From Actinomycetes bacterium (GTDB taxonomy: Bacteria; Actinomycetota; Actinomycetes; JAHEKZ01), in contig DASUFV010000064.1 in the NCBI GenBank assembly GCA_036274415.1, positions 2,064 through 66,063 on the forward strand: DNA of 64,000 nucleotides. Direction: 5' to 3'. Below the pieces are notes generated by a model. That model saw only the letters and a program-made list of their open reading frames with translations, searched no databases and had not been told where the DNA came from. The position numbers and the translations under genes were made by a program. Shown here piece after piece: positions 49,863 to 64,000 of this stretch (within the stretch, counting starts at the first letter, position 1; every line of letters starts with the position of its first letter).

Positions 49863-50144
49863 TCACGCCTCGGGGAAGTCGGGCAGGTCGGGGTTGTCGT
49901 TCCCGGGGTTGCCCGCTTCGAAGTCGGGGTTGTCGCTCAGCTGCGGTAGAGGATACGTCGCCTCTCGGGCGTCGTTGCGCCACTGCTGGGCGATCTCCTC
50001 GCGGAGCGTGACGAGCGGCGTGGTCTCCCAGCCGTCGATCCCGTAGTCCTGCGCGATAGCTCGGACATCGGCCTCGTCCATCGCGGCCAGGTCCCCGTCG
50101 CGGAATGTTTTGGTGGCTTGCTGGATGCGGATGTCGAGCGCCAC
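49863..50144 (-). CDS. hypothetical protein
   Basis: GTG 50144 one nt after the upstream TGA. AAGGAGGG sits upstream. Confidence 0.45.
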   Translation of the reverse strand: MALDIRIQQATKTFRDGDLAAMDEADVRAIAQDYGIDGWETTPLVTLREEIAQQWRNDAREATYPLPQLSDNPDFEAGNPGNDNPDLPDFPEA

Positions 50145-50145
50145 G

Positions 50146-50343
50146 TCAGCCCTCCTTGTCGACCGACCCGACGTCGGCCCGGATGTCGATCGGATCGAGG
50201 TTGCGCTCATAGCGCTCGGCCTCGGGGTAGGCGGTCTCGAACCGGGCGTGCCCGGTCTTCTCGAGCTCCTCGCTGAGGATCGGGCTCTGCTCCTGGTCGA
50301 AGCCCTTGGTCTCGGGCAGGTTGTCGTTCTTGCGAACCATCAC
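50146..50343 (-). CDS. hypothetical small protein
   Basis: 65 aa. ATGA-type overlap. Confidence 0.45.
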   Translation of the reverse strand: MMVRKNDNLPETKGFDQEQSPILSEELEKTGHARFETAYPEAERYERNLDPIDIRADVGSVDKEG

Positions 50344-50897
50344 GTCTCCTCAAACCGTCGGAGCCACTCGCGTACCTCCTCGGTTGACATCTTACTGAGC
50401 CTGTCACGCACTTCGCGCAGCATGTCGTCTGACGCACGCTGCGACGCTGCCTCAGACGCACGCCGGAACAGGTCCGACGCTTCGCCAGCGCGGTGAGTGA
50501 ACTCAGCTTCGAACCCGGCGTCGCTCGGGAACGTGAATCCCTCGCGGCGCAGGGCCTCTTGTGCCTTGGCCTTGCGAAGCACCTCGTCCAAAGGTGAAGC
50601 ATCACGTGCATCGGCCGTGAAGAACTCTGCCTTGAAGAAGTCGCCGTCGAAGTCGAAGCTGCCGTCAAAGGCAGGCCAGTCGGTGGTACCGTACACGCGA
50701 GAGGTCGCTTGACGTCCAGCGGGTCGTGCGGCCGGGCCCGTGGGTGGAGCATAGTCGACTCGGATGTTCCGCCGCTCCCTCTCCGGCTTCATCTTCGCGA
50801 GCAGCGAACGAGCGTTGGCTCGCTCACCCTCAGTGGCGCCGGATCCCGGTGCGATGACGGCCTCGAGCTTCTGGCGGCGTGTCCTCGTGTCAGGCAT
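50340..50897 (-). CDS. hypothetical protein (start at internal ATG)
   Basis: Coding-looking part of track ORF 50340..51050 begins at MPDTRTRRQKLEAV. Confidence 0.45.
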   Translation of the reverse strand: MPDTRTRRQKLEAVIAPGSGATEGERANARSLLAKMKPERERRNIRVDYAPPTGPAARPAGRQATSRVYGTTDWPAFDGSFDFDGDFFKAEFFTADARDASPLDEVLRKAKAQEALRREGFTFPSDAGFEAEFTHRAGEASDLFRRASEAASQRASDDMLREVRDRLSKMSTEEVREWLRRFEET

Positions 50898-51117
50898 CGG
50901 GTTTCTCCGAACGAGCCGAACGAGCGGTCGCGGCGAGATAACGGTCGAGCGCGCGCGAGCGCGCCCGACCCAGATTGTGCGTGATGTGTCGAGACCGCAT
51001 GGCGGCCGGGTGGGACCGGGCGAGCGTCGCCGCCCGGTCCATCCAGCCACGGTCGATCATGGCGCGCAGCTCGTACACGAGGCGCCGCTGCGAGAGCGGC
51101 TCAACGGGCCGTCTCAT
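50890..51117 (-). CDS. hypothetical small protein, HTH-like?
   Basis: MRRPVEPLSQRRLVYELRAMIDRGW... ATGA overlap with the upstream gene. Confidence 0.35.
   Translation of the reverse strand: MRRPVEPLSQRRLVYELRAMIDRGWMDRAATLARSHPAAMRSRHITHNLGRARSRALDRYLAATARSARSEKPDA
50905..50975. repeat. GC-alternating repeat family, copy 4 (variant with a roughly 20-bp insertion)
   Basis: GAGCCGAACGAGCGG...GAGCGCGCGCGAGCGCGCCCGACCC. Confidence 0.5.
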
Positions 51118-51362
51118 CTGAGCGCTCGCGCGATGTGTCCGGCGTAGGTGGCGGTCGCCTTCCAGTAGGCGGCCATCGGCCCCTTCGACCGGCGCCAGGA
51201 GTCCTCGGCCTTGGCGCGCGCGTCTGCTCGGATGTCGAGCAGAACGGCCCGCAGCGCGGCCCGTGAGGGTTCGTCCAACTCCGTCAGGGCTGCCGCTGCG
51301 GGCAGCCCGAGGACGGGGTTGCGAACGATGGTGGCGTCTCGCATTAGTCGTCGTAGCTCCAT
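51114..51362 (-). CDS. hypothetical protein
   Basis: 82 aa, helical-looking. Confidence 0.4.
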   Translation of the reverse strand: MELRRLMRDATIVRNPVLGLPAAAALTELDEPSRAALRAVLLDIRADARAKAEDSWRRSKGPMAAYWKATATYAGHIARALR

Positions 51363-51742
51363 CTGATGATCGCGTCTCGCAGGTCCGGCCCGACCGACCC
51401 AGGATGGGCGGCAAGCGCAGCCCGCACCCGAGACCGATCCTCGTGTGCGAAGGACCGCGGGAAGCGGACCCCGATGTTCTCACCGAGGTCCACCGCCGTC
51501 ACGTTCTCGAGCCAGATGCGCTCGGCAGTCGGCAGGGCCAGGCTGCCGAGCTTCACCTGGGCCACCAGCTTGAGGAAGTTCCACAGCCCGCGCCGGACCA
51601 CGATCCGGGGCTTCCAGTGGACCGTGGTCGCGTCGGTGTAGCCCCTCGTGTGCTGCTCCAGCGCGTACTCCTGACAGCGCCGGTTGCAGAGGTTGACGCG
51701 CAGCTTCTCGGCGACCTCCTGATATGTCTGGGGCAGGCTCAC
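51344..51742 (-). CDS. hypothetical protein
   Basis: GTG in a GTGA overlap with the upstream stop. Confidence 0.45.
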   Translation of the reverse strand: MSLPQTYQEVAEKLRVNLCNRRCQEYALEQHTRGYTDATTVHWKPRIVVRRGLWNFLKLVAQVKLGSLALPTAERIWLENVTAVDLGENIGVRFPRSFAHEDRSRVRAALAAHPGSVGPDLRDAIIRWSYDD

Positions 51743-51939
51743 AGCTCCTCGCTCTTGCGTACGCAGTCGTCGTGGAAGACGTCCATGAAGCTCGGCTCGG
51801 TGCCGGGCTTGCGTGGTGCGTCGACGTCGAACGTCTTGCCGCACCACGTCACGTAGATTAGCGTCGTCCCCGACTGCTGCGTCTCCCAGATCAGGTGCCA
51901 GACGTCTCTGATCACGTCGTGGACCCACATGCCCTTCAT
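51739..51939 (-). CDS. hypothetical small protein
   Basis: Internal ATG (MKGMWVHD...) in an ATGA overlap. Confidence 0.4.
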   Translation of the reverse strand: MKGMWVHDVIRDVWHLIWETQQSGTTLIYVTWCGKTFDVDAPRKPGTEPSFMDVFHDDCVRKSEEL

Positions 51940-52106
51940 CCCGCTGCCACCGTGTCGCCTTTCTTCTCGTGTGCGCGTCGATGCGCCTCGGCGATCCACG
52001 ACAGGTTGTCCTCGTGGACCTTCTTCGCGTTGAGCTTGAGCGGGCCGCAGACCGAACAGGTCACGCTGGACGGCGCCACGGTGTACTCGATTTCGACAGG
52101 TTTCAC
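51936..52106 (-). CDS. small C2H2-like zinc-finger protein (56 aa), absent from the ORF track
   Basis: GGAGGAAGCG precedes a GTG start. VKPVEIEYTVAPSSVTCSVCGPLKLNAKKVHEDNLSWIAEAHRRAH. Confidence 0.35.
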   Translation of the reverse strand: MKPVEIEYTVAPSSVTCSVCGPLKLNAKKVHEDNLSWIAEAHRRAHEKKGDTVAAG

Positions 52107-52591
52107 CGCTTCCTCCGTGACGCAGCCTTTGGTGTCTTGCGCTCGTCGCCGATGATGCGGCCAGCCTCCCGGTAGCTGTACCAGTCGCCGCCGGGCTCGA
52201 CGACGACGTGGTCCTCGAACACCAGTCCGAGGGCGTTCGCGCCGGTCATCACCTTCTCGGTGAGGTTGTTGTCGCTCACGCTGGGGATGGCCAGCATGGT
52301 CGGGTGGTTGTGGGCGATGCTGAACATCGGCGCCGATGTGGCGACGACGGCGGTGAACAGCGACGACAGGTCGAGATCGACGTGGTTGTGGAAGCCCCGG
52401 TTGACCTCGATGATCCGGTACAGGTTGCCGTTCTCGCCGTAGGTGATGGCCCAGACCACCTCCTGGGTCTGCGTGTGGAGGCCGAGCTCCTTCACCAGCT
52501 CGGCGATGGCCAGGCCGCCACGGTGCAGCCGTTTGGTGCGCTCGACGTCGAGGTGCAGGCGCACGAACTCGATGTCAGTTGTCATGGGCAA
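52103..52591 (-). CDS. RadC-like JAB/MPN domain protein
   Basis: IAHNHPTMLAIPSVSDNNLT carries the H-x-H...S-x-x-D JAMM motif. Confidence 0.7.
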   Translation of the reverse strand: MPMTTDIEFVRLHLDVERTKRLHRGGLAIAELVKELGLHTQTQEVVWAITYGENGNLYRIIEVNRGFHNHVDLDLSSLFTAVVATSAPMFSIAHNHPTMLAIPSVSDNNLTEKVMTGANALGLVFEDHVVVEPGGDWYSYREAGRIIGDERKTPKAASRRKR

Positions 52592-52808
52592 TGGACTCCC
52601 AGAAGTTGTGGCATGGGCGGCACTGCCCGTCGTCGAGCACCGGATCGGCCGGGCTCAGGCACTGGTCCTTGTGGTTCATGCAGGCCCGGCACAGGCAGTG
52701 GCCGATCCGCTTCGCCTTGCATGGCGGACACTCCTGCGTCCGGGGGAAGATGGCCCCCCGGTTCATCCCACAGGTGGCGCACACCATGCTCGTCATGGCG
52801 ACGTTCAC
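52575..52808 (-). CDS. small Cys-rich protein
   Basis: CATCG...CPPC...CLCRAC...CRPC. Confidence 0.45.
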   Translation of the reverse strand: MNVAMTSMVCATCGMNRGAIFPRTQECPPCKAKRIGHCLCRACMNHKDQCLSPADPVLDDGQCRPCHNFWESIAHDN

Positions 52809-53143
52809 GCGTGCTCGAGGTGGTCGAGGTACGCCGACGTGTCGCCAGCCTCGTCGTCGTTGACCGCCACGATCCCCTGTGCGCCGAGGATCTCGAAGCG
52901 GTCGATCACGAAGTAGTCAGGCTCGCCGAGGCTGGTGTCACCGCGAACCTCGTCACCGACATTGAAGTCGCCGATCGACGTCCGGCCGGTGAGCAGGACG
53001 TTCTCGCCGTCCTCGACCTTGATGCGTTCCCCGCCCTGGCAACCGTCGAGCTGCTCGTGGGCCCACTCCTCCCCGGCGTCGTCGCTGAACCAGTCGCTGC
53101 GGTCCCCGCAGCTGAGGCAATACAGCACGTACTCGGTGGTCAC
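52805..53143 (-). CDS. hypothetical acidic protein
   Basis: GTG in a GTGA overlap. Coding part of track ORF 52805..53350. Confidence 0.45.
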   Translation of the reverse strand: MTTEYVLYCLSCGDRSDWFSDDAGEEWAHEQLDGCQGGERIKVEDGENVLLTGRTSIGDFNVGDEVRGDTSLGEPDYFVIDRFEILGAQGIVAVNDDEAGDTSAYLDHLEHA

Positions 53144-53418
53144 TGGCGATCCCTCCAGCTGGACAGCGCCCACTCCACGATGTCGGGATGGGCGCCTCGT
53201 CGTGCGGCGTCGTCGATCTCGGCCTTGGTGATGTCCCAGCGGATCAGCGGCGGCCCGACGTACACGTCGTCGCCGAAGAACGGGTGTAGCTCCGGGCATA
53301 CCCGGCTGAAGCGAAGCTCGCCGGTCACCGCGGACACGTCGAGCCCGCACTCGTGCCCGTCCATGCAGACGCCCTGGTCCTCGTCGATCAGGGACATCGT
53401 CGCGTCGATGCTGGTCAT
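53140..53418 (-). CDS. hypothetical protein
   Basis: 92-aa ORF. Confidence 0.45.
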   Translation of the reverse strand: MTSIDATMSLIDEDQGVCMDGHECGLDVSAVTGELRFSRVCPELHPFFGDDVYVGPPLIRWDITKAEIDDAARRGAHPDIVEWALSSWRDRQ

Positions 53419-53473
53419 ACCAGCGGCACCGACTCGATGTGCTCGAGCTCGATGCCGAGGTCTTCGAGGTAGC

Positions 53474-53733
53474 TCACAGGTCGCCTTTGGCCTCGCGCCA
53501 GGCGATCACCTTCTCGATCGAGCCCCACGCCTTGCGCGGGCACTCGTTGTAGAGCCATTGGGCGTACGACTCCATGGCTGCCTTGTTGGTCTGATCGGCG
53601 TAGCCGAAGGCGTCCACGAGGTTGTTTGACAGCACCGCCGTCAGGAACCCGCCTACCGCCTCGCCCCGCTCGACGTAGTCGCGCAAGGGCTCGCGCATGT
53701 GTTCGGGCAGCATGTCGTAGTTGACGTCCATCA
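53474..53733 (-). CDS. hypothetical protein
   Basis: Internal ATG (MDVNYDML...). Its stop overlaps the FtsK-like gene's ATG. Confidence 0.45.
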
Positions 53734-54474
53734 GCGGACCTCCGTTCGCTGCTTGATGACCTTCTCGACGTCCTCGATCGAGACGTTCCGGCCCTTGAGC
53801 CGCTGTAGCCCGCGCACTCCCGGGATGCGGGCGAGCATGTCGCCAGCGCCCAGCAGGTTTTCGGCTCCGGGCTGATCGAGGATGACCCGGCTGTCGATCT
53901 GGCTGACCACCTGGAAGCTGACGCGAGCCGGGATGTTCGCCTTCAGCAGCCCCGTCACGACGTCCGTGGTCGGACGCTGCGTGGCGAGCACAAGGTGGAT
54001 GCCAACCGCACGCGCCATCTGCGCGAGGCGCGTGAGCGGCAGCTGGACCCGATCCTTGGCGGGCCCGAGCATCAGGTTGGCGAGCTCGTCGATGACGATC
54101 ACCAGCCGGGGCAGCTGATCGTCGAGCGGGCTGATCTCGTTGTACGTGTCGAGGTCCCGGCAGTGCCGTCGCTCCAGGCGCTCGAACCGCTCGTCCATCT
54201 CCTGCGCCGCCCACGTCAGGATGGCCACCACGTCGTCGTCCTCGACGTAGACGTAGGTGACGAACGGCTTGTACGGGGCGAACTCGACCCGCTTCGGGTC
54301 GATCAGGATGTAGCGTGCCTCGGCGCCGTCGCCGATCAGGTCGAGCAGCAGGCTGTTGAGGAACACGCTCTTGCCTGACCCGGTCGTGCCAGCCACCAGC
54401 AGGTGCGGCAGCTTGGCCAGATCGAGCCAGGTATCCCGGCCATCAGCTGTCCCGAGCTTGAACTTCAGGCTCAT
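53731..54474 (-). CDS. FtsK/SpoIIIE-family ATPase (motor domain only, 247 aa)
   Basis: Walker A GTTGSGKS, Walker B LVIVIDELANLM, and LATQRP. Confidence 0.8.
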   Translation of the reverse strand: MSLKFKLGTADGRDTWLDLAKLPHLLVAGTTGSGKSVFLNSLLLDLIGDGAEARYILIDPKRVEFAPYKPFVTYVYVEDDDVVAILTWAAQEMDERFERLERRHCRDLDTYNEISPLDDQLPRLVIVIDELANLMLGPAKDRVQLPLTRLAQMARAVGIHLVLATQRPTTDVVTGLLKANIPARVSFQVVSQIDSRVILDQPGAENLLGAGDMLARIPGVRGLQRLKGRNVSIEDVEKVIKQRTEVR

Positions 54475-54737
54475 TCGTCGCCGTCGATCTCCGGGTAGTA
54501 CTGCGGGTCGTCCTTAGCGATGGCGTAGTAGCCCTCGTCGTTCTGGTAGATCGAGCTGTCGAACTCGGTCGGGTCAATCACTTGCTGACGTACGTCGGAG
54601 AACTTCAACGACCCGGCGTCATTCCAGTCGTCGATGACCAAGTCGGCTGCGAGCTCGAGCGCCTTGTCCAGCGACTCGGCCTCGACCTTCACGATGACGG
54701 ATCCGCCGATCTCGTTGCGGATGTGGTACTCGGCCAT
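54471..54737 (-). CDS. hypothetical acidic protein
   Basis: ATGA overlap. 88 aa. Confidence 0.45.
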   Translation of the reverse strand: MAEYHIRNEIGGSVIVKVEAESLDKALELAADLVIDDWNDAGSLKFSDVRQQVIDPTEFDSSIYQNDEGYYAIAKDDPQYYPEIDGDE

Positions 54738-54774
54738 CAGTCGTACCTCGGGTCTGCGATCTCGTCGTAGCGGT

Positions 54775-55044
54775 TCATTCGCCGAACACCACCTTGGTGC
54801 GTGCCGTGCTGGCCTCCAGCGCCTGGGGCCAGCGCAGCAGGGAGGAGCGCAGGTCGAGGGTCAGCTCGCCCGGCGCGATGTCCTTGATGCGGAACCACTT
54901 GATCTGGCCGGTCAGGTACGCCCGCATCAGCGTTTCACCCAACCCGTAGGCGCCGCCATAGGGCGCCTTGACGTAGAACCGGGCGACCCGGCCGTTGACG
55001 CCCGACTTGTACTCGACCTTGAAGACGAACTTAGACTGGGTCAC
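54775..55044 (-). CDS. hypothetical protein (start uncertain)
   Basis: Coding part of track ORF 54775..55149. Confidence 0.4.
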   Translation of the reverse strand: MTQSKFVFKVEYKSGVNGRVARFYVKAPYGGAYGLGETLMRAYLTGQIKWFRIKDIAPGELTLDLRSSLLRWPQALEASTARTKVVFGE

Positions 55045-55267
55045 CTTCGCCCTCCAGTGACAGGTCGTACCTGATCTGCTCGTCAAGCTGCTCGAAGGTG
55101 GCTGTTGGGGAAACTTCCCAGACCTGCGGGTCCACGGCCTTGCGGACATCCAGCAGGCTCTTGATGTACATGGCCTCGGAACCAGTCAGGTTCGCGAACT
55201 CCTGGTGCTGGTCCATGCCGTCGTCGTGCGTCCACTCGACGATGTAGAGGTACCTCTCGACTGTCAC
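55031..55267 (-). CDS. hypothetical protein
   Basis: GTG start. 78 aa. Confidence 0.45.
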   Translation of the reverse strand: MTVERYLYIVEWTHDDGMDQHQEFANLTGSEAMYIKSLLDVRKAVDPQVWEVSPTATFEQLDEQIRYDLSLEGEGDPV

Positions 55268-55436
55268 TCAGTCCTCCGGGAACTCAGGAACACCGGCCCA
55301 CTGGAGCAACACGACGTCGCCCGGGTCGATGTACTCGGCCAGGGTCTGCAGCTCGTAGAGCTCGCCGTAGCTGATGTCCTCGGCCTCGATCGCACTGCGC
55401 AGGTATTCGAGGCGCTCCTTGATGTCGGCCGGGTTC
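55268..55436 (-). CDS. hypothetical small protein (56 aa), absent from the ORF track
   Basis: GTG start VNPADIKERLEYLRSAIEAEDISYGELYEL... Fills the gap between flanking genes. Confidence 0.3.
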
Positions 55437-55647
55437 ACTCTCGCCTCGCTAGTTGCAGGGAAACCACAGTCACGCCCTCGTCGTCCTCGCCGAGGGTGTC
55501 GAAGTCGGCGTGATAGAGCCCGGTGTCGATTGCCTCACGTGCCGTCGAGTTCTCGACGACGGCCTGTACGGCGAGGTCGAGCTCATCGTCGGCAACCTTG
55601 TCAGGAGCCTCGACCACTAGGTCGAGCGTGTAGTACGCGGTCTTCAT
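55435..55647 (-). CDS. hypothetical protein
   Basis: Internal ATG (MKTAYYTLDLVVEAPDK...). Confidence 0.4.
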   Translation of the reverse strand: MKTAYYTLDLVVEAPDKVADDELDLAVQAVVENSTAREAIDTGLYHADFDTLGEDDEGVTVVSLQLARRE

Positions 55648-55844
55648 CAGACCTCCCCATCTGCCACGCACACGGCGCAGCTGTGTTCCTGCCAGCAGTC
55701 CACACTCATGCAGCGCAGCACGCAATCTGCGTTGTGGCCGTCCTCGTCGAGAGCGTTGGCGAGCTTGTCGTAGGCGGCCCACGCTTTCTCGCGCAGCTTG
55801 TCGATCTGCACGCGCCGTGCGTCAGTCGTGTTCGTAGGGGGCAC
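55647..55844 (-). CDS. small Cys-rich protein
   Basis: ATGA overlap. CVLRCMSVDCWQEHSCAVC. Confidence 0.4.
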   Translation of the reverse strand: MPPTNTTDARRVQIDKLREKAWAAYDKLANALDEDGHNADCVLRCMSVDCWQEHSCAVCVADGEV

Positions 55845-56229
55845 GAGACTCGGACTCCTGCCAGCGCAAGGCGTGGTCGAGCGAGCTCTGGATGTCGGCC
55901 CGGAGTCGCTCGGGCAGCCACGGCTGGGCCAGAATCTCCCGGACGTCGGGGATGGCGTACTGCTGGTTGGGCGGGTCGTCAGCCTCGCCCTCGACGTTGT
56001 CCCAGTCGATCAGGATGAACTCGTACGGGAGGTCCTCGTGCGCGAGGTCGTAGTAGCTGCCGTCCGACTTGTAGTGCCCGTCCTCGGCCACCCCGCCCGA
56101 GACGGACACGTAGATGATCGGGCGCGCGTCAGCTGCTGCCGACGCCTCGCGCTCCTCCATCCACTCGTCGAACTCGAGCGGGTGTTTGCGCACGATGTCG
56201 CTGAGCAGCCCCTTGACATTGGCGCTCAT
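55822..56229 (-). CDS. hypothetical acidic protein
   Basis: Internal ATG (MSANVKGLLSD...). Confidence 0.45.
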   Translation of the reverse strand: MSANVKGLLSDIVRKHPLEFDEWMEEREASAAADARPIIYVSVSGGVAEDGHYKSDGSYYDLAHEDLPYEFILIDWDNVEGEADDPPNQQYAIPDVREILAQPWLPERLRADIQSSLDHALRWQESESRAPYEHD

Positions 56230-56239
56230 CGTTTCGGTC

Positions 56240-56494
56240 TCAGCCACGGTAAGCCTCCACCTCGTCACCCGCGCCCAGCGGGGCGTCGTTCGCCGGGTGG
56301 GCGGCGAGCCAGTCGATGTACTCGTTGCCCGTCCCTGCGTTCCGGGCATTGATGAACTGGAGCACCTCACCGTAGGTCAGGTCTGGCTCCAGCAGGATCT
56401 GGCGGATGATCGAAAACTGGGTGTCCGTGATCCGGCGTTCCATCTCGAGCGAGAGCAGGCTCCCGCGTCGGCGGATGGTCAGTTCGAGGGTCAT
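56240..56494 (-). CDS. hypothetical protein
   Basis: 84-aa ORF. Confidence 0.45.
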   Translation of the reverse strand: MTLELTIRRRGSLLSLEMERRITDTQFSIIRQILLEPDLTYGEVLQFINARNAGTGNEYIDWLAAHPANDAPLGAGDEVEAYRG

Positions 56495-56896
56495 TCAGCC
56501 CTCCAGCTTCTGGCGGGACTCGAAGGCGAGGATCGACTCGACGTTCTTGCGGAACTGCCGTGCTCGCCCGTTGTAGTTGTCGCCCGGCACGGCCTGGCCG
56601 GGCAGCAGCAGCTTGTGGACCGCCCTCGACAACGCGAGCGCGTCGATCAGGCGCCCCTTGTCGGGGATGTCGGTGTCGAGGATGTTCCCGGTGCTGCTCC
56701 GAGCCATGTCCTCGATCATCTCGTCGCGGCTCAGCACGCCGAGCTTCTCGACACCGCCCTTGAACTGCAGCCTGTCGGTGGCCCGGTTGTACCGGAAGCC
56801 GAACTTCGGCAGCTGCTCGTCGACGAGCGCGACGTCGTAGACGCCGTGCCCGGTCAGTCGATCGAGCAGCTCCCCCACCGTCTGTGGATCGTTCAT
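56495..56896 (-). CDS. hypothetical protein
   Basis: 133-aa ORF. Confidence 0.5.
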   Translation of the reverse strand: MNDPQTVGELLDRLTGHGVYDVALVDEQLPKFGFRYNRATDRLQFKGGVEKLGVLSRDEMIEDMARSSTGNILDTDIPDKGRLIDALALSRAVHKLLLPGQAVPGDNYNGRARQFRKNVESILAFESRQKLEG

Positions 56897-57111
56897 CGGG
56901 GCAGTCGCTCCATCTCCTCCTCCGTCAGCCAGTTGGCCGGATGCGTCAACGTCACGGCGTCACTGTCGAGCCGGGCGTCGTTGTTCTCGACGTCGTCGAG
57001 GATTGCCTGACGATGTGCCTCGTCGTCGTAGCCGCGGCTCATCGCAAGGGCGAGGATGTCGGGCTGATAGATCGAACCGGTCAGGTAAGACGCAACATCA
57101 GACATCGTCAC
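56893..57111 (-). CDS. hypothetical protein
   Basis: ATGA overlap. 72 aa. Confidence 0.45.
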   Translation of the reverse strand: MTMSDVASYLTGSIYQPDILALAMSRGYDDEAHRQAILDDVENNDARLDSDAVTLTHPANWLTEEEMERLPR

Positions 57112-57322
57112 CCTCCTGAACGATCGTCACCGGCGCCTCCCAGTGGTCGGCCCAGTCACGAGCGCCCTGTGTCGCTTCCTCGCGAGTGCTGTACGGCCCG
57201 CTGTACCCGCCCCGGCGCTCCATGGCCGGGAAGTTGGACCAGTAGATGCCGAACGTCGTACCGACGGACGTCCGGCGGATCGTGGCGATGCCGGGGTTGT
57301 CGGCGGTGGGCCAGTCAGACAC
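57098..57322 (-). CDS. hypothetical protein
   Basis: 74 aa. Confidence 0.45.
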   Translation of the reverse strand: MSDWPTADNPGIATIRRTSVGTTFGIYWSNFPAMERRGGYSGPYSTREEATQGARDWADHWEAPVTIVQEGDDV

Positions 57323-57587
57323 CGTCCTCCTCCGATGCGGCGATCATGGCGATCGACCAGTCGCGTAGCTGGGCGAGGTCGCCCGCCGTCAGTTCCACCC
57401 CAACTGTGAGGCTGGCGCGGTCCTCGACGTTCGTGGCCGTCAGGATTACCGCCGCGACGGTCGATCCCTCGCCGCGCGGCGCGTACACCATCTCGAGTTC
57501 GACGTCGGCGCTGAGTTCGTTCGGGTAGATCGGGTCGCCGACGAACCCCGGCCCAGACGGGATTACGTTGCGTGCGTCAGTCATGCG
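57315..57587 (-). CDS. hypothetical protein
   Basis: Internal ATG (MTDARNVIPSG...). Confidence 0.4.
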   Translation of the reverse strand, partial: RMTDARNVIPSGPGFVGDPIYPNELSADVELEMVYAPRGEGSTVAAVILTATNVEDRASLTVGVELTAGDLAQLRDWSIAMIAASEEDGV

Positions 57588-57749
57588 GTGGCGTCCACTT
57601 TCTCCACGAGGTCGATCGCCTCCTGTTCGGTGATGTCCTCCTCGAGCGTCTCGAACGCAAGCAGGCCAGGCAGCGAAGTCACCGCCTCCCACGTGTCGGT
57701 GGTGTCCTCGACGGCGACGATGTAGACGGCGAAGCTCACGAATATGCCC

Positions 57750-58145
57750 TCATCGGTACCAGAACTCGCGGCCTTCGATCTCGATCGACGTGTAGTCCTG
57801 CTTGAGCTGTTCGGCGGCCTTGGCCCAGTCGATCGGCGGCCAGCTGCTCTCGCGCTGGGCGGCACCGATGTCGTAGGCGAACTCCTCGGCATAGGCCGGG
57901 AAGTAGTGGTCGGCATACAGGTAGGTGTGCCGCACCTTGTCTTCGGCGTAGCCCTCGATCTCGTCGATGATCTCGATCAGCTTCTGCCGTTCAGCGACGA
58001 GATCCTGATCGGCGCCGACCATGATCGTCTCGCCGTCCGGGTCCATGATCTCGTCCTCGATGTCTTCGAGGCGCTTCTCCAGATCTTCGCCGTCGATGTA
58101 GTCGCTGCGCGACATCTCGTAGAGGTCACGCTGGAGGATATTCAC
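57750..58145 (-). CDS. hypothetical acidic protein
   Basis: GTG in a GTGA overlap. Coding part of track ORF 57750..58409. Confidence 0.45.
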   Translation of the reverse strand: MNILQRDLYEMSRSDYIDGEDLEKRLEDIEDEIMDPDGETIMVGADQDLVAERQKLIEIIDEIEGYAEDKVRHTYLYADHYFPAYAEEFAYDIGAAQRESSWPPIDWAKAAEQLKQDYTSIEIEGREFWYR

Positions 58146-58375
58146 TGCGGCAGGCCCTCGAAGATCACGATGTCGGACCAGTGGCTGCCGTCGTCGTCCT
58201 TGATCCAGTCGCCGCTCGTCGTGATGTGCGCGATGTCGCGGTCGTTGAGCGTGTCGCGCATCAGCGCGTAGGTCAGCTGCACTGCCTCGGGCAGCTGTAC
58301 GCCAACCTCGTCCGGCTCGTTCGGATACTGCTCGGCCATCGCGTCCGACTTGAGGAATGACACCATCAGCGCCAT
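58142..58375 (-). CDS. hypothetical protein
   Basis: Internal ATG (MALMVSFLKSD...). Confidence 0.4.
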   Translation of the reverse strand: MALMVSFLKSDAMAEQYPNEPDEVGVQLPEAVQLTYALMRDTLNDRDIAHITTSGDWIKDDDGSHWSDIVIFEGLPQ

Positions 58376-58674
58376 CACCGTCCCTCCTGCGGGTGCTGTC
58401 CTGTGCCACTGCACGTCTTGATCTCGTAGGGCTCCCCGCGAAGCTGGATGATCCATGCGGCCGGGTTGCCCTTGAGCCCGCCCTGCACAGCGACGTGGAA
58501 CATGCCGTTCGGCCCGTCAGCCACGAGGGCTGGAACGCCCGACCGTGCCAGGTTCCAGAGGTAGAACTGCGCGTCCTTCTTGGTGCCCTCGCCGATGCAC
58601 GTCCACGTGTCAGCGAAGATGCCGAGCGCCTCGTATGGGTCGCGCGCGTCAGTTGCTTGCGATGCTTCGCTCAC
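58375..58674 (-). CDS. hypothetical protein
   Basis: 99 aa. Confidence 0.45.
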   Translation of the reverse strand: MSEASQATDARDPYEALGIFADTWTCIGEGTKKDAQFYLWNLARSGVPALVADGPNGMFHVAVQGGLKGNPAAWIIQLRGEPYEIKTCSGTGQHPQEGR

Positions 58675-59063
58675 CCGAACACCACCTCTCCAAACACGCC
58701 TAGCTGTATGACGCAGTCGGCTGCGTCAGCGTCCATTGCCGCGCGCTCCTCGACGTCGCGCATCTGGTCTTCGAGGTCCCGCCGGATCTTGCCGCCCTGA
58801 AGGGCAAGCTCGATGCCGCGCCGGATCACCTTCGGCGTGATGGTCGAGTTCTGGCGGCCAGGCCCGATCGGGTTCTCGAGCGTGATCAGGTAGAACACGA
58901 ACGAGTCCCCGACATCGAGGGTGTCCAGCCAGTCCTCGGTGTGCCAGCGCCTCGGGTCGTAGTTGGGGATGCGTGCCCAGTAGTTGATGCCGCCCTCGGC
59001 GGCCGTCACGGCGATGTCGCCGCATTCCTTGCCCGTGAGATCGGGCACCTCAATCAGCATCAT
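58671..59063 (-). CDS. hypothetical protein
   Basis: ATGA overlap. 130 aa. Confidence 0.5.
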   Translation of the reverse strand: MMLIEVPDLTGKECGDIAVTAAEGGINYWARIPNYDPRRWHTEDWLDTLDVGDSFVFYLITLENPIGPGRQNSTITPKVIRRGIELALQGGKIRRDLEDQMRDVEERAAMDADAADCVIQLGVFGEVVFG

Positions 59064-59398
59064 TCGCCCTCCCCATTGCGATAGCGCGTCCAGGTTGTGT
59101 CGTCGGCTGGATCGACCACCTCCGCAATGTCTTCGAGCTTCGGTGCTGTCTCGAACAGCAGCGCAGGCTGCTGGTCACGGTTCATCGGGTGTCCCCACGA
59201 GCCGTGCCAGTACTCGCACTTGTCGTTGTCGCAGCCAACGCCGATGATCGTCTCCTCCTCCCAGTAGCACTCGTCGCCCCAGCCACGGCTGAGATACTCA
59301 CCGTCCGGCCTGATGCCCACCGAGCGAGGGACGAGGCTGATCTCGTGGATCGTGTCGATCTCGCCACAGCCCTTGCAGCGGTAGAGCTTGTCAGCCAA
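59060..59398 (-). CDS. zinc-ribbon protein
   Basis: CKGCG...CDNDKCEYWHGSW. Confidence 0.5.
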   Translation of the reverse strand: MADKLYRCKGCGEIDTIHEISLVPRSVGIRPDGEYLSRGWGDECYWEEETIIGVGCDNDKCEYWHGSWGHPMNRDQQPALLFETAPKLEDIAEVVDPADDTTWTRYRNGEGE

Positions 59399-59600
59399 GT
59401 GGCACGCTCCAATTGCCGCAGATCAGGTGGGTCGGCGTCTCTTGCACGAGGTCGTCGTACTTGGCGTACGTCCACGTGTTGTAGTCACCGAGTTCGTCTT
59501 GCGCATAGGCGTTGCGAACGGCCTCACGAGGCGTGATGCCGACGTACATCCTCTGCTTGTCCTCGTGCATGTGGAACACCCACACTGGTTCGTAGCTCAT
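59391..59600 (-). CDS. hypothetical protein
   Basis: 69 aa. Confidence 0.45.
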   Translation of the reverse strand: MSYEPVWVFHMHEDKQRMYVGITPREAVRNAYAQDELGDYNTWTYAKYDDLVQETPTHLICGNWSVPLG

Positions 59601-59640
59601 GCGAACGTAAGCTCACGCATCCTTCCAACAGCAGTCGTGC

Positions 59641-60417
59641 TCAGTCACGCCAGAGACTCCCGTTCTCGGTGAACCGATACTCGTTGGCCTCGGCCATCTC
59701 CAGCAGCGCCTCCTCGCTGGTGGCGTACTCGATCTCGTCGCGCATCAGCGCGATCACCTCGTGGCACAGGTCCGACAGCAACGAGTTGCAGTCGTCCTTC
59801 GTCTGCTCGCTGAGTCCGTCGTAGTGGTAGTCGAGATCGAACTCGCTTGGCAGACGGCCACCCCACAGGCTGTTGACCGAGTGGATCACCAAGCCCTGCT
59901 CGCGGATGATCCGGGCGTCCCTCGAGCGCAGGTCGAACACACGCTGCTCGCGCGGGCTCGCCGCGAGCGGCCTCGGTGGCGTTGGCTGGCCCCACTGCAA
60001 CTCGGGCAGGTCCCGGATGTCCTTGCCAGCGAGGTACCACTGAAGCGCGCGCAGGAACGCCCGCTCATCGACGACGGCACGGCGGTTCAGCGTGAACTCG
60101 CCTCGGTCCACGTCGTACGACTCCCAGATCGTGTCGTCGCGCGTGACCATCTTGGTGATCGGCTTGTGGTGCTCGTCCCAGGTGAACTTGCCGTTCTCCT
60201 TGACATGCACGACCTCGGTCTTCTGCGGGACCGTGATGCCAACAGCCTTGAACAGCTCCACCGCGTCGTTGTCGAGCGTCGACTCGACTACGTAGTCGTC
60301 CATCAGGACGTGTTCACGCAGCGTGTCCAGCGCACGCTCATAGCCCCCGCTGGCGCCCTCCTCCTCAAGCTCGGGGAGGGCGTACGTTGTGACCTCGATC
60401 ACGTGTGTCTCAGGCAT
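59641..60417 (-). CDS. hypothetical protein
   Basis: 258-aa ORF with good codon bias. Confidence 0.55.
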   Translation of the reverse strand: MPETHVIEVTTYALPELEEEGASGGYERALDTLREHVLMDDYVVESTLDNDAVELFKAVGITVPQKTEVVHVKENGKFTWDEHHKPITKMVTRDDTIWESYDVDRGEFTLNRRAVVDERAFLRALQWYLAGKDIRDLPELQWGQPTPPRPLAASPREQRVFDLRSRDARIIREQGLVIHSVNSLWGGRLPSEFDLDYHYDGLSEQTKDDCNSLLSDLCHEVIALMRDEIEYATSEEALLEMAEANEYRFTENGSLWRD

Positions 60418-60616
60418 CGCGTGCCTCCTGCTCGAAGCGCTTGCCGTGGATGTCGCAGTGTTCGCCGTTGAGTCCGCACGGGCGACAACGATCTGTGCGC
60501 GGGTGTGTGTCCGCGAGCCAGCGTTCCTGTTTGGGCGTCAACGAGCGCGCGCGCGAGCCAGGTAGCTGCGACCCCTCGCGCGCGCTACGAATGAGCGGGT
60601 TGCCGTCCATCACCAC
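60410..60616 (-). CDS. hypothetical small Cys/His protein carrying one copy of the GC-alternating repeat
   Basis: 68 aa. GC3 about 78%. CRPCGLNGEHCDIHGK. Confidence 0.35.
   Translation of the reverse strand: MVMDGNPLIRSAREGSQLPGSRARSLTPKQERWLADTHPRTDRCRPCGLNGEHCDIHGKRFEQEARDA
60541..60600. repeat. GC-alternating repeat family, copy A
   Basis: AACGAGCGCGCGCGCGAGCCAGGTAGCTGCGACCCCTCGCGCGCGCT, an imperfect inverted repeat around a 17-18-nt loop. Confidence 0.6.
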
Positions 60617-60873
60617 GAATGCTCCTGCTCGAAGGCGAAGTACGCCTCGTCCTGCGGGAACACGCCCAGGATCAGGTCACCATTGGCGAGCCTGATCCAC
60701 AGGTACTCCGAGCGCGTGAACCCATCTTCGAGATCAGGATTGGCGGCGAAGATCGCCACCGCAGCGTCGATGCTGGCGGGCTTCATCCACCCGATCTCGG
60801 GTAGCGATGCTCGGTCGTCAGGGTGGTCGAGTACCAATGTCTTCTCGCCAAGTCGTGCCATATCAGTACCCAT
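60610..60873 (-). CDS. hypothetical protein
   Basis: 87 aa. Confidence 0.45.
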   Translation of the reverse strand: MGTDMARLGEKTLVLDHPDDRASLPEIGWMKPASIDAAVAIFAANPDLEDGFTRSEYLWIRLANGDLILGVFPQDEAYFAFEQEHSW

Positions 60874-61065
60874 CCGCTACGATGCCGCTCCGCGTCACAT
60901 AGAGCGCGTACCTGAATAGGTAGCCATCCGCGTCCGTCGCCACCACGCGCAGGATCCCTGGCTCGTAGGGCTCGATGCGGATGGACTGGAGCCGGAACCG
61001 TTCCTCGTTCTCGTCGTCGATCAGCTCAAGCAGCTCGCTGACTGCGTTGGGCACGAGCGTCCAGT

Positions 61066-61617
61066 TCACAGCCGCTCGACCTCGTAGAGCAGCGCCTGGT
61101 AGGCGGCGTTGCCGAGGAAGTGACGCAGGCTCTTGGCGACCTCGCCGCACGCGTTGTAGATCTTCTCGGCCTTGCGGCTGTCGGTGTCGTAGCCGAGGTC
61201 GTTTGCGAAGTCCTCGAAGTTGCGTGCGTTCTCCCATGCCGAGGCATCGGACGCCAACGAGTCGAGCACGTCGGCGGCTGTCGGTGGCGTGGGCTGGTAG
61301 AGCGGCAGGCTCTCGGCCCACTGGCTGAAGTACTGCAGCTTGCGCGTGCGCTTGACGTGTGCGATGCCGCTTCGGAACGGCGTTGCGATCCCTTGATGAT
61401 CGACGCCGGGCGTGCCGCGGTTGAGCGTCACGCTCCACGCGAAGTGCCGCCATCCGTCCTCGTCGGCCGAGGGCGTCGGCATCATGCCGGACGGGCGGCG
61501 CTGGAACGGTTCGACGTACGGAACGAAGCCGGGCTTCTCGTCCACCCGGATCGTCTCGATCGTGATCCCGTGATCCTCGATGAACCGATCGAGCGGGATC
61601 AGCTCCGTGTCAGTCAA
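61066..61617 (-). CDS. hypothetical protein (TTG start inferred)
   Basis: GGAGGG, a 7-nt spacer, then TTG in a TTGA overlap with the upstream stop. Coding part of track ORF 61066..61890. Confidence 0.4.
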   Translation of the reverse strand: MTDTELIPLDRFIEDHGITIETIRVDEKPGFVPYVEPFQRRPSGMMPTPSADEDGWRHFAWSVTLNRGTPGVDHQGIATPFRSGIAHVKRTRKLQYFSQWAESLPLYQPTPPTAADVLDSLASDASAWENARNFEDFANDLGYDTDSRKAEKIYNACGEVAKSLRHFLGNAAYQALLYEVERL

Positions 61618-62096
61618 CGAAAGTCCCTCCTGTGGCGCCAGGCATAGGCGATTTCGTCCGCGTCGTTCTCGGAGCGGAACTTGCCGCAGATGTAGCCGTC
61701 GCTCGTGCCTTCGAGCCCTCGGTGCTGTTCGCGCGTGCCGCTGTTGCAGCGCACGCACCATTCCTCGTCCCACTCGAGCATCCCGAGCGCCTCCTCGTCG
61801 GCGATCGGGTAACGATCGAGGCGTTCGGCCCACGCGCGCATGGCGTGCTCGGCGTTGGATCCTGGGCGCACGAGCAGGTGGTCGATCCACCCGACAGCCC
61901 AGTTGTTCATGCGCTCGATCGCCGCATCCTCGGGATGCGCTTCGAGGATGGCCGGAACGATCACGTCCCAGTTGCTGCGTTCGATGGTGTCCGAATCCCG
62001 GTGGACCGAGAGCGTGATCAGCCAGCCTTCGCGCGCACCGTAGTAGACGAAGCTCGCGCGGTGGTCGGTGTGGATCGGCTCGAAGTCGATCACCAC
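61614..62096 (-). CDS. hypothetical protein
   Basis: 160 aa. Confidence 0.5.
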   Translation of the reverse strand: MVIDFEPIHTDHRASFVYYGAREGWLITLSVHRDSDTIERSNWDVIVPAILEAHPEDAAIERMNNWAVGWIDHLLVRPGSNAEHAMRAWAERLDRYPIADEEALGMLEWDEEWCVRCNSGTREQHRGLEGTSDGYICGKFRSENDADEIAYAWRHRRDFR

Positions 62097-62304
62097 GTCA
62101 CCGAACGCCAGCGATCTTCGGCGTAGAGCTGAGCCCAGCGCCGGTAGACGCGCGCCCAGTAGTCGCGTGTTTCATCGTTCGAGCGAGCGTGGAAGAACAG
62201 CCGTGCGCCATACACGGCCTCCATCCACGCATCGCGGACGAGCTGGTCCATCAGTAGTCGCCTCCGTTCTCCTGTAGAGCATCTGGTGCCCGCATGTGGT
62301 CATC

Positions 62305-62365
62305 ACGCCAAACGAGCGAACGAGCGCGCGCGAGGCAGTTGGCTGCGACGCCTCGCGTACGACGT
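62305..62365. repeat. GC-alternating repeat family, copy B
   Basis: AACGAGCGAACGAGCGCGCGCGAGGCAGTTGGCTGCGACGCCTCGCG. Confidence 0.6.
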
Positions 62366-62389
62366 TGATCGCGTCCTCGTAAGCGCTCA

Positions 62390-63067
62390 TCAGTCGATGA
62401 TCCCGAACGCGCCATTGAACTCGGGCTGACCCTCACGCCAGCCGCCGTCCTCGTTCGCCTCATCGAGCCAGTCGTTGTAGGCGTGCTGGTCGTTGTCGAA
62501 TGCGATCTCGGCCGCCTCGGCGTTGAGCGCGTGGTAGGCGTAGACGAACCCCGAGCTGTCCTCGCTCAGCATCCAGCTCTCGGGCTCACGCGACCACGGC
62601 ACGTCGAGGTCGAGGAACACGCCGAACCACAACCCGTACTCGTAGGTGTCGCCGTCGCTGGCGTGCATGTACTCGCTGTGGTCGTACAGCCAGCGAGCCT
62701 TGAGCTGATCGCTGCGAGCGACGCCCTCGAACTTGCCCGGCCCAACGTAGGGCGCAAAGCGAGACAAAATCCTGAGCGCGAGAGATCGAGGCCACACGCG
62801 CCAGAAGAACGGCCGTGTCACGAGCCGCCTGATCCAGACCCTGCGATAGCCACGAGCGCCGTCCCACGGGCTCAGCCGATCAACGAATGCCATCAGCCGA
62901 GGACGTTGGTCGAGCGTGTAGTAGGCCCGTGCAGACAGGCCATCGATGCGCCATTCGAGGCGTTCCTTGGTCTCGACGAGCCACAGGCGAATGGCCCATC
63001 GAACGAGGTCGAGGTAACGAGTCACTGTGCGCCTCCGGGCTGAGAGTTCAGTATACGTGTGGAACAT
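62390..63067 (-). CDS. hypothetical protein (start uncertain)
   Basis: Coding part of track ORF 62390..63373 (MFHTYTELSARRR...). Confidence 0.45.
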   Translation of the reverse strand: MFHTYTELSARRRTVTRYLDLVRWAIRLWLVETKERLEWRIDGLSARAYYTLDQRPRLMAFVDRLSPWDGARGYRRVWIRRLVTRPFFWRVWPRSLALRILSRFAPYVGPGKFEGVARSDQLKARWLYDHSEYMHASDGDTYEYGLWFGVFLDLDVPWSREPESWMLSEDSSGFVYAYHALNAEAAEIAFDNDQHAYNDWLDEANEDGGWREGQPEFNGAFGIID

Positions 63068-63093
63068 CCACACGCCAAGGTATTCGCCGCCGG

Positions 63094-63297
63094 TCAGTCG
63101 GTGAACCTGACGCCAACCGCGCGAGAATGTGCGATCGAGGAGTTCACGTACGAGCGTTGCGACATGCTCGATCCGCGGTACGTGCCGAGCATCATGTCGA
63201 TGAACTCGCGCGCCTCCTTGCGGGCTTCGGCGCGCGTCAGCGGGCCAGAGCCGCTGTTTACCTCGACGGTGATGACGAGCGCGACCTTTCGTTTCAT
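63094..63297 (-). CDS. hypothetical protein
   Basis: Internal ATG (MKRKVALVITVEVNSG...). Confidence 0.4.
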   Translation of the reverse strand: MKRKVALVITVEVNSGSGPLTRAEARKEAREFIDMMLGTYRGSSMSQRSYVNSSIAHSRAVGVRFTD

Positions 63298-63500
63298 GGC
63301 CGCGCGACCTGGGTGACGAGCTCGCGCACCGCGCGCTCGACATCCTTGCCGAACGCCTCGGCCCACTCACCATCCGGGCGAGTGGTCCAGACCTTGACGC
63401 CGTCGGGCGTGACCGTGCCCTCGGGCTTGGCGAAGTCGCGGAACGCGAGCGCCATCTGCTGCTGTGGTGTGAGAACGGGCAGGATCGTGGGCGTGGTCAT
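63294..63500 (-). CDS. hypothetical protein
   Basis: Internal ATG (MTTPTILPVL...). Confidence 0.4.
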   Translation of the reverse strand: MTTPTILPVLTPQQQMALAFRDFAKPEGTVTPDGVKVWTTRPDGEWAEAFGKDVERAVRELVTQVARP

Positions 63501-63790
63501 CAGTTGACCTCCTCTGCTGTGACACCGAGCACGATGTCGCTGTAGGTGACGCCGTTGTTGAGGCCGATGAGCGGGACCCATTCGGAGGACTCACGCTCGA
63601 GGAACGCGAGCGAAGCTCCCTCGGACACGAGGATGAACTTGCCGAGGTAGAAGTTGGGGTCGAGCGACTCGATCCAACCAGCGTCAACCGAGCGGAGATC
63701 GACGCGCGTGAGTTGCAGTTCACCGGGCACGGTGAACGGGCCTATCGGCGGGTTATTGCCGATCTTGTCCACGAACGTGAACGTCATCAT
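63500..63790 (-). CDS. hypothetical protein
   Basis: 96 aa. Confidence 0.45.
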   Translation of the reverse strand: MMTFTFVDKIGNNPPIGPFTVPGELQLTRVDLRSVDAGWIESLDPNFYLGKFILVSEGASLAFLERESSEWVPLIGLNNGVTYSDIVLGVTAEEVN

Positions 63791-63957
63791 CGGTAGCCCT
63801 CCGGGTGCGCCTGATAGCGCGAGCTGTGGCGCGCGTAATGGAGCCGAACGAGCGCGCGCGCGAGCAGTTGCCTGCGACCCTCACGCGTGCGCTCCAACCA
63901 CTGGTCGAGCGTGGCCAAGATGGCCACGCACGCCAGGAAGATCGCTACCTCGCCCAT
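63787..63957 (-). CDS. hypothetical small protein (56 aa, N-terminal hydrophobic segment), absent from the track. Contains repeat copy C
   Basis: ATG 63957. ATGA overlap with the downstream gene at 63787-63790. Confidence 0.3.
   Translation of the reverse strand: MGEVAIFLACVAILATLDQWLERTREGRRQLLARALVRLHYARHSSRYQAHPEGYR
63847..63895. repeat. GC-alternating repeat family, copy C
   Basis: GAGCCGAACGAGCGCGCGCGCGAGCAGTTGCCTGCGACCCTCACGCGTGCGCTC. Confidence 0.6.
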
Positions 63958-64000
63958 GCCTGGGCCCGGGCGGACGACGATCCACCCTGCTCCCGGTCGA

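Follow-up and report, generated by a model that had tools for sequence, protein, structure and literature searches.

A repeated, co-oriented GC-rich element at early-gene junctions of an actinobacterial phage, a candidate cis-acting signal

Results

Copies of the element in the early arm

The stretch of DNA analyzed here, 64,000 nucleotides of contig DASUFV010000064.1 (the window), is the genome of an uncultured tailed phage with a GC content of 65% and a strong GC bias at third codon positions (GC3 ~0.85). Structural genes occupy the plus strand up to ~42 kb, and the region from 42 to 64 kb forms a leftward early arm encoded on the minus strand. The subject of this report is a GC-rich element of ~45–50 nt that is found in this arm in three full and three partial copies, all between 50.9 and 63.9 kb and all on the minus (sense) strand, with no copy detected in the 42-kb structural arm by regular expression, nhmmer profiles, or a pattern describing the element family. 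A megablast comparison of the 59–64 kb region with 50,697 phage records resulted in zero matches, relatives of the terminase were found at ≤30% identity only, and searches of ~25 early proteins against Pfam and PHROGs returned nearly no known families, the exceptions being ERF, PD-(D/E)XK, a weak RusA match, FtsK-like, and RadC. The phage belongs to a small, previously unsampled clade of actinobacterial phages that is absent from isolate and IMG/VR collections.

The three full copies (A, B, and C) were each recovered with both a regular expression and nhmmer. Copy C (CGCGTGAGGGTCGCAGGCAACTGCTCGCGCGCGCGCTCGTTCGG) spans positions 63844–63895 (−) within a 56-aa open reading frame (ORF; 63787–63957) encoding a hydrophobic helix and a basic tail, and is positioned ~50 nt past the stop of a 97-aa gene and 57 nt ahead of the ATG of a 96-aa gene, an orphan for which relatives were not found. 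In the −1 frame of copy C (GSQATARARARS...; 63787–63957, −) a TGA stands just ahead of the 5′ box, after which the frame is open into the 96-aa gene and in frame with it, an arrangement compatible with chance (~0.17, a rough estimate). Copy B (62315–62364, −) contains (CG)4 and a tandem CTCGTTCG-CTCGTTTG tail and occupies a 138-nt gap between the stop of a 212-aa gene (62390) and the ATG of a 53-aa gene (62251); this gap was not called as a gene in the annotation of the Logan contig. Copy A (60537–60588, −), which has a perfect 11-bp pair of CG arms, begins 20 nt into a 66-aa ORF (60410–60610) with a CxxC...HCxxH tail that overlaps both the stop of an 87-aa gene and the start of a 258-aa gene. 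Of the partial copies, copy E (58641–58670, −; GAAGCATCGCAAGCAACTGACGCGCGCG) consists of the 5′ module only, was detected with nhmmer at E = 0.006, and begins 4 nt past the GTG start of a 99-aa gene (58375–58674). Copy F (56117–56151, −; GAGGCGTCGGCAGCAGCTGACGCGCG) is made up of the 5′ module and the CG tract without the CTCGTT box, matches the family pattern at 56123–56148, and lies ~100 nt inside a 141-aa gene.

The regular expression GAGCGCGCGCG-N0-12-CAG-N3-8-CTGCGAC matched the window three times, at A, B, and C, compared with 0.00 matches expected from shuffles, and the same copies scored E = 4e-12 to 9e-13 with nhmmer profiles, values for the three copies lying at about 1e-10 to 1e-13 overall. 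A second pattern, GAGGNNTCG-N7-CTG-N1-5-CGCGCG, gave five overlapping matches at three sites (A, B, and F) compared with 0.01 expected. The mutual identity of A, B, and C is 81–84% over a 43-column core, and their flanks are unalignable. An earlier note on this DNA had described copies that differ by 1–2-nt indels while the DNA is conserved, and that lie at gene junctions, mostly within very short ORFs; both descriptions hold for A, B, and C. In each of these copies, CG tracts form an imperfect inverted repeat on either side of a 13–17-nt centre. Half of the copies begin 4–25 nt past a start codon that overlaps an upstream stop, and the other half are found 13–117 nt beyond the stop of a substantial gene. 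Relative to the surrounding ORFs, copies are located 4–125 nt downstream of ORF starts and 54–190 nt upstream of the next start, and at least five unrelated gene contexts host the element.

Site 50905–50975

The earlier note counted four copies, of which A, B, and C are real and on the minus strand; it missed the partial copies E and F, and its fourth copy, at 50905–50975 (−), is a partial relative of the element and not a full copy, as judged by nhmmer, shared 14-mers, and folding. With the three-copy profile this site (site D) gave nhmmer E = 7, and the six-copy profile did not recover it at E ≤ 1. The site is made up of a 12-bp GC hairpin, GGTCGGGCGCGC-TCGC-GCGCGCTCGACC, at ~50938–50968, followed after 20 nt by a tandem 3′ box, CGCTCGTTCGG-CTCGTTCGG (50905–50931). 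The tandem box adjoins a 185-aa gene at its ribosome-binding site and ATG (50897), and the site is contained in the 3′ end of a 75-aa ORF. The exact 14-mer CGCTCGTTCGGCTC is common to site D and copy C (two matches compared with 0.09 expected), and a further 14-mer, CTCGCGCGCGCTCG, is common to site D and copy B. An 8-nt overlap, ATGCCTGA, in which the downstream gene starts and the small ORF ahead of it stops, is used twice in the early arm, at 60410–60417 and 50890–50897 (−). At both positions an element-bearing small ORF is followed by a larger gene, of 258 aa (MPET..) and 185 aa (MPDT..), respectively.

Conservation at orthologous sites in related phages

Searches with the exact motif in IMG/VR, JGI metagenomes, and GTDB genomes gave single unrelated chance matches or none, and the looser patterns CTGGC-N6-16-CTCGTTACGCGCG and CGCGCGCGCTCGTTCG gave chance matches only, none with the full element or shared proteins. 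Relatives were obtained from protein searches and were found in Logan, ENA, and JGI assemblies only. Searching such relatives for the motif, a step that the earlier note had suggested, showed that a related phage with homologous genes (L156/L157) carries the element at orthologous sites. This phage, known from Logan assemblies, is syntenic with the early arm of the window, its homologous proteins are 33–61% identical, and it contains four copies of the element, of which three or four occupy sites orthologous to copies in the window. The first (L156-1, L156 3517–3564) is found at the position of copy C, likewise in a small ORF encoding a hydrophobic helix and a basic tail, with a core that is 88% identical. 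L156-3 (L156 7186–7231) is found at the position of copy A, in a small Cys-rich gene (104 aa) that immediately precedes the 251-aa homologue. An 85-aa gene carries L156-2 at its N-terminus, and the L020 orthologue of this gene likewise has a copy; the fourth copy is at L157 7681–7707. An E-like sequence is also present at L156 9285–9317, a site syntenic with copy E. The gene context of copy B has no orthologue in L156, and an interpretation of copy B as the N-terminus of an L156-type 85-aa gene, displaced by a frameshift, was rejected, as the homology ends at the element.

At orthologous sites the identity of the core is 79–88%, with the flanking DNA dropping to the alignment background. Regional alignments peak at 83–86% for C versus L156-1 and at 73% for A versus L156-3, with a background of ~50%. 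This conservation is comparable to that of a neighboring promoter/operator island (90%). The island, at 63027–63078 (−) upstream of the 212-aa gene, contains a sigma70-like promoter (TTGGCG-17-TATACT) overlapping a perfect palindrome, CGTGTGGA-TGT-TCCACACG, and is 90% identical over 48 nt to L156 4294–4341; given this identity it is likely a conserved early promoter and operator.

Other features of L156 were observed in the same comparison. The region L156 1714–2293 is a divergent control region with GATC-rich repeats, and in the first early gap, L156 2556–2786, a 12-bp GC hairpin capped by a UUCG tetraloop occurs together with four boxes of the CTCGT type and a canonical terminator with a U-tract. 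The tandem box of site D is 96% identical over 24 nt to L156 2617–2640.

Among the 222 fetched loci, the 5′-module pattern is present only in the window phage and L156/L157, always on the sense strand. The loci L018–L026 encode the 258-aa gene at 65–77% identity without the element, and several of their gaps contain a looser motif, ..CTCGGGaCGgACTGGC..CTCGTTACGCGCG, with nhmmer E of 0.01–0.1. Kinship of this motif to the element is plausible but marginal on such scores. In the form ..ACTGGCA/G..AC..CTCGTTACGCGCG, the gap motif is often found after a terminator-like hairpin and 20–80 nt upstream of a ribosome-binding site (L026 ~700 and ~3585; L025 ~30; L018 ~1425; L019 5, 1870, and 4018), and it may represent a diverged version of the element. 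Three further candidates were rejected: L007, which was an IMG/VR match to the 258-aa protein, has no genes in common with the window and lacks the motif, and L222 and L154 contain different motif sets and no element. Four ends of Logan contigs that were assembled independently fall within or ≤10 nt from copies (60539–60562; L157 1 and 7681–7717); the public sequencing runs containing these phages are SRR25158403/431 and SRR26541664-69. Copy A is both the end of L016 and the start of L017, and L157 begins in L156-1 and ends just past another copy, which suggests a drop-out of coverage at GC hairpins or heterogeneity in (CG)n length within phage populations.

The comparison with L156 also bears on the possibility that the element is a recombination linker, i.e. 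a tract of ~45 nt with which an ERF-type recombinase would swap early cassettes between co-infecting relatives, or an inverted-repeat insertion resembling a miniature inverted-repeat transposable element. The element adjoins non-homologous gene replacements between the window and L156, with a 96-aa gene in one and a 72-aa gene in the other after copy C and different genes around B and L156-2. Its gene contexts are unrelated, the phage encodes an ERF and PD-(D/E)XK module, the CG arms are terminal and inverted, and TCGT(T/A)CGC-like direct repeats flank several copies (A, B, and L156-3, and not C or L156-2). Exchange at conserved islands is, however, a consequence of their conservation and not its cause, no transposase was seen and no clear target-site duplication was found, and persistence at orthologous sites over deep divergence argues for purifying selection for another function. 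Such an origin of the conservation is quite improbable.

Nucleotide and coding constraint

In the six strong copies the element is comprised of an invariant 5′ block, CGCG-n-GAGG-n-TCG-N7-CTG, and an invariant 3′ block, (CG)4-CTCGTTCG, i.e. (CG)4-CTCGTT(C/G)G. A variable centre separates the two, and the spacing of the blocks is constant to ±1 nt. The CTCGTT box of the 3′ block is read in frames 0, 1, and 2. The TCG of the 5′ block is read in two frames and encodes Ser in 7 of 10 copies, and in these seven copies the CT of the following CTG falls on codon positions 2 and 3. The codon formed there ends in T (CCT, ACT, or GCT) in six of the seven, with the residue varying among Pro, Thr, and Ala. 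Orthologous pairs show compensating 1-nt indels. The occurrence of the 3′ box in three frames, together with the retention of a third-position T while the amino acid varies and despite a GC3 of ~0.85, indicates selection on nucleotides. The third-position T pattern is the reverse of a coding signature, and selection at the nucleotide level is supported by these alignments.

In contrast to the rest of the element, the 5′ box is read as GAG followed by G.. (Glu-Gly/Ala) in all 10 copies examined, and the element is therefore not fully frame-independent. The fixed frame fits a link to translation, and either the phase of translation matters or the copies were propagated, along with a nearby start codon, through in-frame duplication. 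The earlier note proposed that the DNA or RNA, and not the encoded peptides, is under selection. This proposal is supported and strengthened by the islands shared with L156/L157, the three frames, and the retained T, and has to be qualified by the single frame of the 5′ box.

A shared peptide would offer a different origin for the similarity, in which small early proteins carry a paralogous motif R-E-[AG]-[SR]-x4-5-[AS]-R-A... and the likeness of the DNA is a by-product. The constant reading of the 5′ box and the Ser in 7 of 10 copies agree with this, and the encoded peptides EASQPTASRA, EASQATDAR, EASAAADAR, and GGSGEPDSRALVR are alike. However, orthologous copies use different frames in the middle of the element and in the 3′ box (two to three frames), the third-position T is kept while the residue varies, the gap that holds copy B was left non-coding by the gene caller, the ORF of that copy would share 80 nt with the next gene, and the looser motif of other relatives is found in non-coding gaps. 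Paralogous proteins conserved in one frame are not what is observed, and the frame and third-position data largely refute the peptide explanation, which we regard as hardly tenable.

Predicted fold and known signal classes

The element could form stems of 8–13 bp with a loop of 4–8 nt in two-tier folds and otherwise of 13–17 nt. A two-tier hairpin is the minimum-free-energy fold in five of the six strong copies. The apical stems of these hairpins vary (GCAG/CUGC, UCGGG/CCUGA, and GCUCG/CGAGC), as do the apical loops (CCAA, GCAA, CGCA, GGAA, and CCC). L156-1 favors a different fold. Predicted two-tier hairpins with differing apical stems are suggestive, though with too few independent cases. 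Column-wise, the structure is inconsistent between copies because of slippage of the CG tract.

Comparison with known signals gave few matches. Rfam 15 returned no match at the gathering score for the whole window and none that was relevant at E ≤ 5 for 58–64 kb. A terminator scan of 50000–64000 found no U-tract terminator at any copy, the 3′ tail being CUCGUUC/G. No sigma70 promoter was found at the copies, the sole match in 50–64 kb being off the element at 63078–63050. The earlier note had also considered Z-DNA-prone recombination hotspots; this role gains nothing from the frequency of (CG)4 runs, which at 14 in the window compared with ~16 expected are not enriched.

Promoters for extracytoplasmic function (ECF)-type sigma factors follow the pattern AAC-N16-CGT, with AAC in the −35 and CGT in the −10 at a distance of 16–17 nt and with these positions conserved best, and the element might be a promoter of this kind for a non-sigma70 holoenzyme, repeated ahead of blocks of early genes. 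Copies C (GCAAC-N16-CGTT), B (CCAAC-N15-CGTT), and L156-2 (GGAAC-N16-CGTT) fit the pattern, and the element points in the direction of transcription, 54–123 nt upstream of the next gene. The AAC is nevertheless present in three of the six strong copies only, being absent from A, L156-1, and L156-3, and it falls on the most variable segment of the alignment, so that no part of the element is less conserved than the would-be −35 pentamer. The supposed spacer is invariant, a property that a spacer should not show. Several copies lie deep within genes, no sigma70-like match occurs at the copies, and no sigma factor was recognized among the early proteins with Pfam or PHROGs. We consider a promoter of this type very unlikely.

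The element could alternatively be a signal in the nascent RNA, i.e. a terminator or attenuator hairpin or a nut-like antitermination site consisting of a hairpin and a boxA-like CGCUCGUU. The GC-rich stem-loop is positioned directly past upstream genes, and the invariant CGCUCGUU agrees with boxA of lambda and rrn (CGCUCUUA, UGCUCUUUA; PMC2724277) at 7 of 9 positions, as does CGCUCGUUC with the consensus CGCUCUU(U)A. The order of hairpin and then box is that of rrn antiterminators, and both site D and the first gap of L156 have a hairpin followed by tandem boxes. On the other hand, a U-tract is lacking and the terminator scan was empty at the copies, the loops and apical stems vary without the loop identity of a boxB, and an N-like protein was not found. 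Nut function is known to suffer when the site is translated, and the majority of copies are in sequence that is, or could be, translated; four to six sites per operon are also unlike nut. A signal of this kind is improbable.

A more serious rival is an array of sites in the DNA for a phage regulator, asymmetric and operator- or stoperator-like, that would block or license elongation by RNA polymerase in the early arm. The two long invariant blocks, the lack of covariation, and the spacing that is constant to ±1 nt are consistent with protein-bound DNA; the strict co-orientation with transcription and the location at short junctions resemble the stoperators of cluster A (PMC9283540), and the conservation between phages equals that of the neighboring promoter/operator island. 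In contrast to stoperators of 13–14 nt, the element is ~45 nt long, there are just 3–6 copies within ~13 kb, and a DNA site would not be expected to keep the 5′ box in one reading frame. No repressor, helix-turn-helix protein, or sigma factor was recognized among the ~25 early proteins by Pfam or PHROGs. The stoperator-like role raised by the earlier note is still a reasonable, if unlikely, rival, and none of the roles proposed there is confirmed.

Other repeats in the window

Repeats of a different kind are found on the plus strand. More than 20 copies of a 66–69-nt (22-aa) repeat occupy 9936–11587 within a 1052-aa ORF (8579–11737), and further copies occupy 31720–32845 within a 1679-aa ORF (31615–36654). 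They probably represent domains repeated within tail or fibre proteins.

Discussion

The same sequence is found at matching sites in a related phage despite differing reading frames, and for this reason a regulatory signal in DNA or mRNA is most likely. Starting from the copy number, strand, and positions of the element, its conservation in a second phage, its nucleotide-level constraint, and its restriction to the early arm, we tentatively favor the reading that it is a co-oriented, nucleotide-selected cis signal of the early transcript, likeliest acting on the sense mRNA at gene junctions. In such a mechanism the element would be present on the sense mRNA as a GC-clamped, loosely structured sequence at the junctions of early genes, with the 5′ block contributing a Shine-Dalgarno-like GAGG. 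The two invariant blocks would be recognized by the ribosome, by a factor of host or phage origin, or by both. The outcome would be that the share of the polycistronic early message that is translated, stabilized, or read through is set at each junction. Both the action on RNA rather than on double-stranded DNA and the modulation of translation, mRNA fate, or elongation are inferred.

Several observations weigh against a signal acting on the mRNA. The hairpin is no more stable than dinucleotide shuffles (z = −1.6, +0.3, and −2.0 among A, B, and C), and the L156 copies range from z = +1.0 to −3.6. RNAalifold on six sequences gave 12 pairs, one of them compensatory, with a covariation term of +0.83, i.e. 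no support from covariation. The hairpin of the earlier note accordingly stands as an imperfect CG inverted repeat in A, B, and C, to which neither shuffling nor covariation lends support. The sense and antisense folds are about equally stable, making a comparison of the strands uninformative, and the CG arms never vary, which is no argument for pairing, favors recognition of sequence, and could equally point to a double-stranded DNA site. Ribosomes would unfold any RNA structure in the several copies that lie within what appear to be real genes. The constancy of the 5′-box frame could have been inherited through in-frame duplication without selection. Lastly, the clear form of the element is limited to two phage lineages, with the other relatives that have the 258-aa gene containing the looser motif.

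A more specific form of an RNA-level signal would be the operator of a dedicated regulon for post-transcriptional or elongation control, bound at four to six frame-locked sites within early coding sequence by an RNA-binding translational regulator or by a nut-like complex that recognizes the hairpin and the boxA-like CGCUCGUU, with slippage of the (CG)n tract perhaps switching the frames of the small ORFs. This specific form is rather improbable.

The oriented repeats of actinobacteriophage early arms, such as stoperators, start-associated sequences (SAS) and extended SAS (ESAS), and palindromes, are among the few handles on the timing of expression in these phages, and several are unexplained. 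The present element contributes a new sequence with a new architecture, originating in a phage clade missing from isolate and IMG/VR collections, and it presents an unusually clear comparative case of a nucleotide signal maintained inside translated sequence. Its mechanism, if worked out, could show how gene junctions link translation to a signal in RNA or DNA. Until a host or expression data become available, the practical impact is modest.

Comparison with known systems

Repetitive extragenic palindromic (REP) elements are GC-rich imperfect palindromes of ~35–45 nt that are co-transcribed at operon junctions and act as barriers to mRNA decay or as attenuators. They are chromosomal, number in the hundreds, lie outside genes, have a 5′ GT(A/G)G, and are mobilized by REP-associated tyrosine transposases (RAYT). 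The element described here is likewise a GC-rich imperfect palindrome of similar size at gene junctions with a sequence shared among its copies, but in contrast to REP elements it is found in a phage, in few copies, often within ORFs, and with no RAYT. Related stem-loops also recur between early genes on the sense strand in the RNase III sites of T7 early mRNA and in the promoter-stem-loop cassettes of T4-type phages, where they coincide with the boundaries of gene-cassette shuffling. Substrates of RNase III need stems of ~20 bp, whereas those of the element are 8–13 bp, and no early promoter consensus is attached to it.

The antiterminator sites of lambda nut and rrn (PMC2724277) resemble the element in having a hairpin beside a short conserved box that begins with CGCUC, and in their place on early phage transcripts. 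The boxes differ, being CGCUCGUUC in the element and CGCUCUU(U)A in nut and rrn, and the loop of the element is not conserved. There are also many copies of the element per operon, in translated sequence, and no N-like protein was found.

The ESAS of cluster K phages consist of 17-bp arms and a 4–13-bp spacer, are found directly upstream of a 13-bp SAS with a ribosome-binding site and start codon, and have a function that is still unexplained (PMC3203893). Like the element, they are imperfect inverted repeats with a variable spacer, present in multiple copies of nearly all one orientation in the non-structural arm, tied to gene starts, with one arm better conserved, and kept at orthologous genes of related phages (here C/L156-1, A/L156-3, and E/L156-9285). 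The sequence of the element is unrelated to ESAS, with arms made of CG tracts, a 13–17-nt centre, and a 3′ CTCGTTCG box, and it is positioned downstream of or between start codons with no SAS present. The stoperators of cluster A phages are 13-mers that number >20 per genome and bind a known monomeric repressor (PMC9283540). They share with the element the character of asymmetric repeated sites in short intergenic spaces whose orientation follows transcription, all copies in both phages studied here being on the sense strand. The element differs in being ~45 nt long, in having 3–6 copies in the early arm, in the lack of an identified repressor, and in its frame-locked 5′ half. Because it fails the defining features of both ESAS and stoperators, the element is a member of neither class, while belonging to the same general kind of oriented repeat.

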